Shown here one piece after another: positions 12,115 through 12,480 of a stretch of DNA of 64,000 nucleotides. Position 1 is the first letter of the stretch, and each line of letters opens with the position of its first letter. The stretch comes from Eledone cirrhosa (Eukaryota). A program made the translations under genes and the position numbers. The DNA is taken from assembly GCA_964016885.1 (NCBI GenBank), contig OZ024745.1:63550001-63614000 (forward strand). Direction: 5' to 3'. The notes under the pieces are model-generated. The model searched no databases, was not told where the DNA came from, and was given only the letters and a program-made list of their open reading frames with translations.

Positions 12115-12480
12115 TTCGAACGAAACAGTTCTAGTCCTGGAGAAGCCATTTCTATATAAAATGTGATATATCAATGATATTAATAAATGGAAACTATATT
12201 TAAAAAACGGTTCGAACCGTTAAGCTCTCCTTCCTGGATATGTCAATATTTATAAAACAAACTTTGTATTTTATCTGATGAGAGCATACCAAAGTTTTGG
12301 TACCCTTGAAATATATATAATAGAATAAATATGGTTTTATAAATATAGTTTTCATTGATTAATATCATTGATATTATACTCCAGAAAACTTGTCCAGTGC
12401 TTCGAATCAGTCATAAATATATATATTTGTTGAATTACCAACAAATTAAATATCCCTTTGTTTATGCTTATAAAATGTGA
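12115..12480 (+). mobile_element. Hammerhead-bearing mini-element (~170 nt monomer family), copy A
   Basis: Monomer shared with 28935-29095 and 61763-61935; inverted duplication of the 3' end (12169-12209 vs 12334-12373); start of a second head-to-tail monomer (TCCAGAAAACTTG) at ~12380; (TA)n flanks. Confidence 0.8.
12268..12326 (+). ncRNA. Minimal type I hammerhead ribozyme
   Basis: ATTTTAT-CTGATGA-GAGCATACCAA agtt TTGGTACCCTT-GAAA-TATATA-TA-ATAGAAT: intact core, 7 bp stem I, palindromic stem III. Confidence 0.8.

Follow-up and report, generated by a model that had tools for sequence, protein, structure and literature searches.

Within a 64,000-nt stretch of the Eledone cirrhosa genome (contig OZ024745.1; hereafter the window), a unit of about 170 nt that carries a hammerhead ribozyme motif lies beside (TA)n tracts. 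The question raised by this locus is whether such units form an independent element, as an earlier note on this DNA proposed in calling them non-autonomous, retrozyme-like monomers, or whether they are parts of something larger. Our analysis shows that the feature is real but was misread as a retrozyme, and that it represents a new family within a known clade. In all probability, the copies are 5'-truncated 3' ends (a pLTR with its hammerhead, with or without a tail of ~93 nt) of a Hydra-clade Penelope-like family, likely inserted into (TA)n by the element's own endonuclease and RT.

A BLAST comparison of the window confirmed three homologous copies, 80-91% alike, at 12214-12372 (+), about 28930-29095 (-), and 61763-61935 (-), referred to below as A, B, and C. 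TA alternation directly adjoins the end of all three, as the earlier note had said. Copy A is bounded by a 17-nt target-site duplication at 12155..12171 (+) and 12469..12485 (+), the left one an exact 17-mer that occurs again at 12469 and nowhere else in the window, and the right one continuing into (TA)n. Inside lies an inverted arm of ~37 nt on the minus strand (12172..12208), identified by BLAST as a tail-less, short 3' end; positions 135-173 of copy C match 12208-12170 at 92%, so the inverted duplicate of copy A's 3' end that had been described is real, at 12170-12208. The main arm (12214..12370, +) is a pLTR cut off inside its 5' hairpin, and it contains the hammerhead motif. This arm is 92% identical to the 3' end of a long genomic copy, L061, and 91% identical to that of another, L094. 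A small inverted duplication is present at the junction. The insertion ends with a tail, or long 3' end, at 12371..12468 (+). The same sequence is present in the tandem copy L094, including between the upstream pLTR and the start of the ORF. What had been taken for the start of a second head-to-tail monomer is this separate sequence of ~93-95 nt, whose best local match to the monomer is just 11 nt and AT-rich.

The other two insertions differ in extent. The main arm of copy B (28936..29269, -) comprises ~175 nt of 3' UTR, the pLTR with the hammerhead motif, and a short 3' end, and is 80-85% identical to L092, L061, and L094 across ~340 nt. On its 5' side is an inverted tail piece (29270..29313, +) with 93-95% identity to the tail in the same three loci. 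A fixed monomer of ~170 nt is therefore not what the window holds, as copy B extends ~175 nt farther 5', to 29269, before the inverted tail piece begins. Copy C (61765..61935, -) is a solo pLTR flanked by (TA)n tracts; it starts at the 5' hairpin and finishes with the short 3' end.

Several other repeats surround these insertions. Positions 12115-12170, within the span originally given for the feature, are part of a different family: the stretches 12106-12170 and 62896-62947 each represent the 3' half of a repeat resembling a minimal hammerhead (CUGAUGAU-UUC..GAA-UGAAAC), with 27,663 exact 27-mer hits, often in close head-to-head pairs, and insertion A lies in the TA-rich end of this repeat. 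A near-perfect inverted pair at 61380-61565 belongs to a third hammerhead family with a ACCUCGGGU stem III. A long GGT-rich tandem repeat occupies 50412-54695, where the minus strand would read as Thr/Pro-rich and mucin-like, and a weak tRNA match at 10-81 (-; 31.3 bits) is possibly a tRNA-derived repeat. A general repeat search of the window was dominated by microsatellites.

All three copies share the same hammerhead layout, with an 8-bp stem I, CUGANGA, a long interrupted stem II, GAAA, and a AUAUAUAU stem III. In copy A, the type I hammerhead motif, identified by descriptor scan, folding, and covariation, spans 12267..12327 (+): stem I pairs 12267-12274 with 12320-12327, the core is CUGAUGA (12275-12281) and GAAA (12308-12311), stem II is 12282-12307, stem III is 12311-12318, and the predicted cut falls between 12319 and 12320. 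On the minus strand, copy B has the core CUGAAGA at 29018-29012 with a predicted cut between 28974 and 28973, and copy C has its core at 61859-61853 with a predicted cut between 61816 and 61815. The claim of an intact motif in each copy thus stands for the core; however, pairing is lost at the base of stem II in copy C, which was missed by a strict descriptor, and copy B is without 14 nt of the outer stem I arm. Stem I had been given as 7 bp and is in fact 8 bp, including one G-U pair. The palindromic stem III was correctly described, as the self-complementary AUAUAUAU is found in all three copies, with A at the cut site.

Conservation of this motif was assessed in 85 related copies, which were top BLAST hits and not loci picked by the 27-mer described below. 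Only 9 of 1,001 cells of the core (CUGANGA, GAAA, and UH) differed (0.9%), compared to 244 of 7,423 elsewhere (3.3%), and all 12 core letters were kept in 71 of the copies. A core no more conserved than its flanks, which the earlier note had listed among the grounds for refuting its reading, is therefore not what these copies have. Covariation also supports the fold. In an alignment of 34 rows, 12 of 32 base pairs were changed on both sides (shuffle mean 5.6; 1 of 500 shuffles as high), six of them in stem II and six in the 5' hairpin, and 91% of positions paired as opposed to 40-50% in slid controls. Stems I and III were nearly invariant, partly because 28 of the 34 rows were selected by a motif spanning both. 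A shuffle of stem I in 22 family representatives gave 120 of 154 Watson-Crick pairs versus 66, a result we do not use as support, as the descriptor itself required stem I and the comparison is circular.

The motif departs from the canonical form in several ways. The pair closing stem II (10.1-11.1) was A-U in 12 rows, G-U in 12, G-C in one, and unpaired in nine of the same 34, with the canonical G10.1-C11.1 pair of type I hammerheads almost never present; several published Hydra motifs are likewise non-canonical at this position (PMC8557442). Minimum-energy folding did not predict the active fold as the ground state, with stem I probabilities of ~0.18, 0, and 0.5 for isolated A, B, and C, and the predicted AUAUAUAU homoduplex is weak at -3.2 kcal/mol. 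A search of Rfam returned no hammerhead family at gathering level in the window, nor at E up to 10 over 12100-12500. Given a stem III of 2 bp and the non-canonical 10.1-11.1 pair, the hammerhead alone likely cleaves weakly and would need a dimer or the protein. Of 22 family representatives from the fetched loci, 15 have a self-complementary stem III, nine of them by Watson-Crick pairs alone, which fits the dimer model for minimal PLE hammerheads (PMC4209133). Self-complementary variants in the same genome include AUGCGCAU, found next to a similar stem I, as well as AUAUGUAU, ACUAGU, and ACGCGU. Since relatives keep the self-complementarity with other letters, there is no need for a link between a (UA)n stem III and the (TA)n microsatellite, which had been suggested and which our data do not support. 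A loose descriptor applied to loci L001-L196 gave 237 hammerhead-like hits from many distinct families, so such motifs are dense in this genome.

Next, we considered the sequence around the unit. The flanks of the 30 top BLAST loci are shared on both sides of the 173-nt unit, and longer copies reach more than 2 kb 5', through an AT-rich 3' UTR of ~1.1 kb and into an ORF. One locus, L094, is a partial tandem that reads UTR, pLTR with hammerhead, tail, 54 nt, ORF, UTR, pLTR with hammerhead, tail, and (TA)n. Its two hammerheads are 3,548 nt apart, in a locus with an insertion as well as a deletion. The ORF starts ~200 nt beyond the predicted cut and ~54 nt beyond the tail. The insertion that interrupts the L094 ORF is 89-95% identical to a repeat of ~110 nt present at six window sites (10633-10743, 11127-11236, 18246-18357, 25276-25381, 30308-30414, and 33001-33121).

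The frames of L087, L086, L061, and L094 indicate a single ORF with a PLE-type RT followed by a C-terminal GIY-YIG endonuclease. The earlier note's mention of Penelope-like elements was therefore the correct lead. The longest open frames, 699 and 689 aa, are both from a sister subfamily, and none of the 17 long loci examined has a fully intact ORF. When one RT fragment served as a protein query, 26,667 first-look candidates came up, of which 150 were scored. Thirty-eight relatives were found at 30-46% identity, the full-length ones ~700 aa long. Pfam assigned no family to three partial and two long ORFs and gave no significant family for four of the relatives.

The Hydra clade is defined by a C-terminal GIY-YIG without CCHH, a CxCX5C linker, DKT, RWK, CxxC and CxH around E and N, hammerheads, and (TA)n insertion (PMC8557442). 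In our alignment (A1), the ORF contains SDKT and an RWK-like RRLRW, in which the K of RWK is not kept, while relatives have RMRWK. Its linker, CNCRIKSNC, is a CxCX5C motif; there is no CxxC within the GIY-YIG core and no CCHH; and CHLC..E..N..CRH places CxxC and CxH around the conserved E and N. By eye, the ORF resembles Hydra-1_Obim and Hydra-1_Ajap in the PMC8557442 supplement. The element also has a hammerhead in its pLTR, insertion into (TA)n, a partial tandem, an inverted 5' copy, a one-sided tail, and a short target duplication. Its unit of ~3.5 kb exceeds the <3 kb of Hydra elements, a size that PMC8557442 gives as a tendency and not as a diagnostic. These motifs and the by-eye comparison with reference proteins make placement in the Hydra clade probable. 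Two other assignments were considered. Naiad, which also targets (TA)n, was rejected because this element carries its endonuclease at the C-terminus and has a full hammerhead. Neptune was dropped given the CxCX5C linker, DKT, and the missing CCHH.

An exact 27-mer running from GAAA to stem I has 3,037 + 3,127 = 6,164 matches in the 3.0-Gb genome, while a reversed control has none; because the match must be exact, this is a lower bound on copies. The earlier note was right to see here a type I hammerhead that is carried by a high-copy retroelement and associated with (TA)n. For arrangement, we used the first 100 exact hits on one contig (C1), picked by position and not by score. Twenty of the 99 intervals between neighbours were shorter than 5 kb, and all 20 of these pairs were head-to-head; there were no same-strand neighbours within 5 kb, although a partner too diverged to keep the exact 27-mer would escape this count.

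The 3' ends of the same 100 copies fall into two classes, 50 short and 50 long (tailed), at two fixed positions 53 and 146 nt past the predicted cut. A long and a short end were joined in 20 of 20 close pairs (p = 1.9e-6 against 50:50). Counting by motif in the window and at 144 loci yielded 50 long+short pairs, six short+short, and one long+long. Of the six short+short calls, five show a missed tail in their flanks and the remaining one is long+short by BLAST; the single long+long insert (L168) has the tailed end on both arms. Sixteen pairs could be tested for the relatedness of their two arms, the other four overlapping too little, and in 15 of the 16 the arms resembled one another more than they resembled the median other copy. 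Eight of the 100 copies have only an inverted tail piece on the 5' side, which does not overlap the main arm. A BLAST rule found no inverted partner in 38 of the 100, although by eye some of these show an arm that the rule missed or a few letters of inverted tail. TA alternation directly follows both ends in most of 50 two-ended inserts, and seven of the 50 have an exact direct repeat of 13-17 nt with a marked base (300 shuffles: mean 1.0, maximum 4). This stricter test replaced a looser, poorly built first one, which had given 7 of 57 against a control mean of 8.8. Hammerheads in Hydra pLTRs, (TA)n targeting, inverted or opposite-strand copies, and one-sided tails are already published. In the literature searched, for which portions of the sources were available, we found no published count of long+short pairing, though a qualitative statement is in print.

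A second hammerhead family in the window (30690-30895) is a sister to the one described here. It has a G-C pair closing stem II, a AUAUGUAU stem III, and an inverted tail on the 5' side, with 1,940 exact 28-mer hits in the genome. ORF pieces at one of its loci (L218) are 56-68% identical to the L087 ORF, and the family has the same short and long ends. Among its first 30 hits, five divergent pairs look long+short by eye.

The 5' ends are also non-uniform. Among 100 copies, 50 begin in a 38-nt zone over the 5' arm of the hairpin, none in the next 38 nt upstream, 25 farther upstream, and 25 downstream; in these counts paired arms are not independent and BLAST ends carry slack. Palindromes at the pLTR 5' end, inverted pLTRs, a tail on one of them, and target duplications of 8-10 bp have been described before (PMC3846280). 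On a tree of the 72 copies that reach the hairpin zone, short and long labels change 19 times versus 19.8 when shuffled, so the short form arises repeatedly and is no separate lineage.

These observations bear directly on the retrozyme reading, in which hammerheads in succession would cut a non-autonomous tandem monomer of ~170 nt to yield a small circle that is then reinserted. The unit size is within the 170-400 nt range of retrozymes (PMC7229834), about half of the copies are near ~170 nt, and an origin of retrozymes from pLTRs has been argued (bioRxiv 10.64898/2026.07.22.740005). In the sister family, the first 100 hits also include two same-strand neighbours, at distances of 185 and 340 nt. 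However, the family studied here has no such pairs in its own sample, within the limit on diverged partners given above, and the supposed second monomer is the element's tail. Copies neither start nor end at the cut site, and short and long copies are intermixed on the tree. A circle of ~170 nt needs same-strand cut sites that close together, whereas the single tandem examined spaces them 3.5 kb apart. The unit belongs to an element whose copies run into an RT-endonuclease ORF, which is at odds with non-coding independence. We therefore regard the retrozyme reading as very improbable.

Two further alternatives concern steps of the process and do not conflict with the identity of the element. 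The copies of ~170 and 265 nt could derive from a separate short RNA whose start lies at the hairpin, where the pLTR would have a promoter or a processing site, and which the parent protein mobilises in trans; the pile-up of 5' ends would then mark an RNA 5' end and not a stop of the RT. The very sharp upstream edge (50 copies against 0), the covariation of the hairpin across subfamilies, and the action of solo pLTRs in trans in Adineta (PMC3846280) speak for this possibility, which we hold to be a real but lesser one. The ends, however, are scattered over ~35 nt rather than at one base, with the slack of BLAST ends, and short copies occur beside long ones in every subfamily, so that there is no sign of a short form propagating itself, though full-length masters could still produce short transcripts. 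Alternatively, no second target-primed event would be needed if the hairpin gave rise to the head-to-head structures through self-priming or fold-back, either on cDNA or on an antisense template, a route put forward in PMC3846280. Junctions do cluster at a palindrome, the junction of copy A contains its small inverted duplication, and the arms are near-identical sisters. Yet under fold-back it is not obvious why the second arm should finish at whichever fixed site the first did not use, as it does in 20 of 20 pairs. Fold-back also leaves the eight non-overlapping inverted tail-only arms unexplained and sits poorly with long+short arms of very unequal 5' length whose junctions lie far from the hairpin (e.g., L115 and L196). 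We consider it rather unlikely.

On balance, we favour, with moderate confidence, two-nick priming at two start sites on uncleaved RNA, with a frequent stop at the hairpin and head-to-head joining of the cDNAs. The endonuclease would nick both strands of the palindromic (TA)n target ~15 nt apart, and each nick would prime cDNA synthesis on uncleaved RNA, one at the end of the tail and the other at the inner start site. Synthesis would most often halt at the hairpin that marks the 5' edge of the pLTR, and the two cDNAs would become joined head to head. Overlapping arms would call for strand displacement on one RNA, or else for two RNAs. In a tandem, the hammerhead would release a unit RNA of ~3.5 kb beginning ~200 nt before the ORF. 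For a Poseidon PLE, which is of another clade, in vitro work has shown that both strands are nicked and extended, two internal RT starts bound the tail, the template is uncleaved RNA, and the hammerhead is protein-assisted (PMC11167929). A stricter version is that every insertion is made by two RTs on two nicked strands at two assigned start sites, with sibling RNAs held in one particle by the palindromic stem III; two sibling RNAs would be used because both arms often copy the same stretch. We regard this version as a long shot. If it were true, the hammerhead would act in double-ended insertion by dimerising the RNA, and solo pLTRs would be produced by a programmed stop at the covarying 5' hairpin.

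How inverted insertions form is called unresolved in both PMC8557442 and PMC11167929, and the thousands of young copies here may serve as a natural experiment on how Penelope-like elements produce them. They offer the in vitro assay already in use three specific predictions: that tailed ends pair strictly with tail-less ones, that target duplications are 13-17 nt long, and that the 5' edge is sharp at the covarying hairpin. Furthermore, solo pLTRs can be mistaken for retrozyme monomers or SINEs in annotation.

Metazoan non-LTR retrozymes (Cervera and de la Pena 2020, PMC7229834) have in common with the element a type I hammerhead, low GC, high copy number, and a similar unit size. Unlike retrozymes, the copies here were seen in no head-to-tail arrays, are attached to a coding element, and have ends that lie away from the cut site. 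Minimal PLE hammerheads (Cervera and de la Pena 2014, PMC4209133) are likewise mostly single motifs from truncated PLEs, with opposite-strand pairs 100-700 bp apart, rare tandems ~3 kb apart around the RT ORF, and a palindromic helix III that suggests action as dimers; their stem I of 4-5 bp is shorter than the 8 bp plus outer extension of 13-14 bp found here. Poseidon_Ac of Anolis (Frangieh et al. 2024, PMC11167929) has the same two fixed 3' ends bounding a tail, an AT-rich target, and 3' ends downstream of the cut site. It is from another clade, and its hammerhead and tail overlap the ORF start, whereas here the ORF lies past both.

The closest system is that of the Hydra-clade C-terminal EN+ PLEs (Craig et al. 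2021, PMC8557442), such as Hydra-1_Obim and Penelope-13_HM. These have in common with our element the ORF motifs (DKT, RWK-like, CxCX5C, no CCHH, and CxxC/CxH), a 3' hammerhead whose palindromic stem III is tiny and whose stem II has a non-canonical pair at its base, the (TA)n target, partial tandems, an inverted 5'-truncated copy, and a tail at one end only. The element described here differs in its larger unit and ~1.1-kb 3' UTR, in a tail of ~93 nt compared to a published 30-40 nt, and in its long interrupted stem II and extended stem I. Its hammerhead sequence is also unlike the motif listed in PMC8557442 for Hydra-1_oBim, and the element is therefore another family of this clade.
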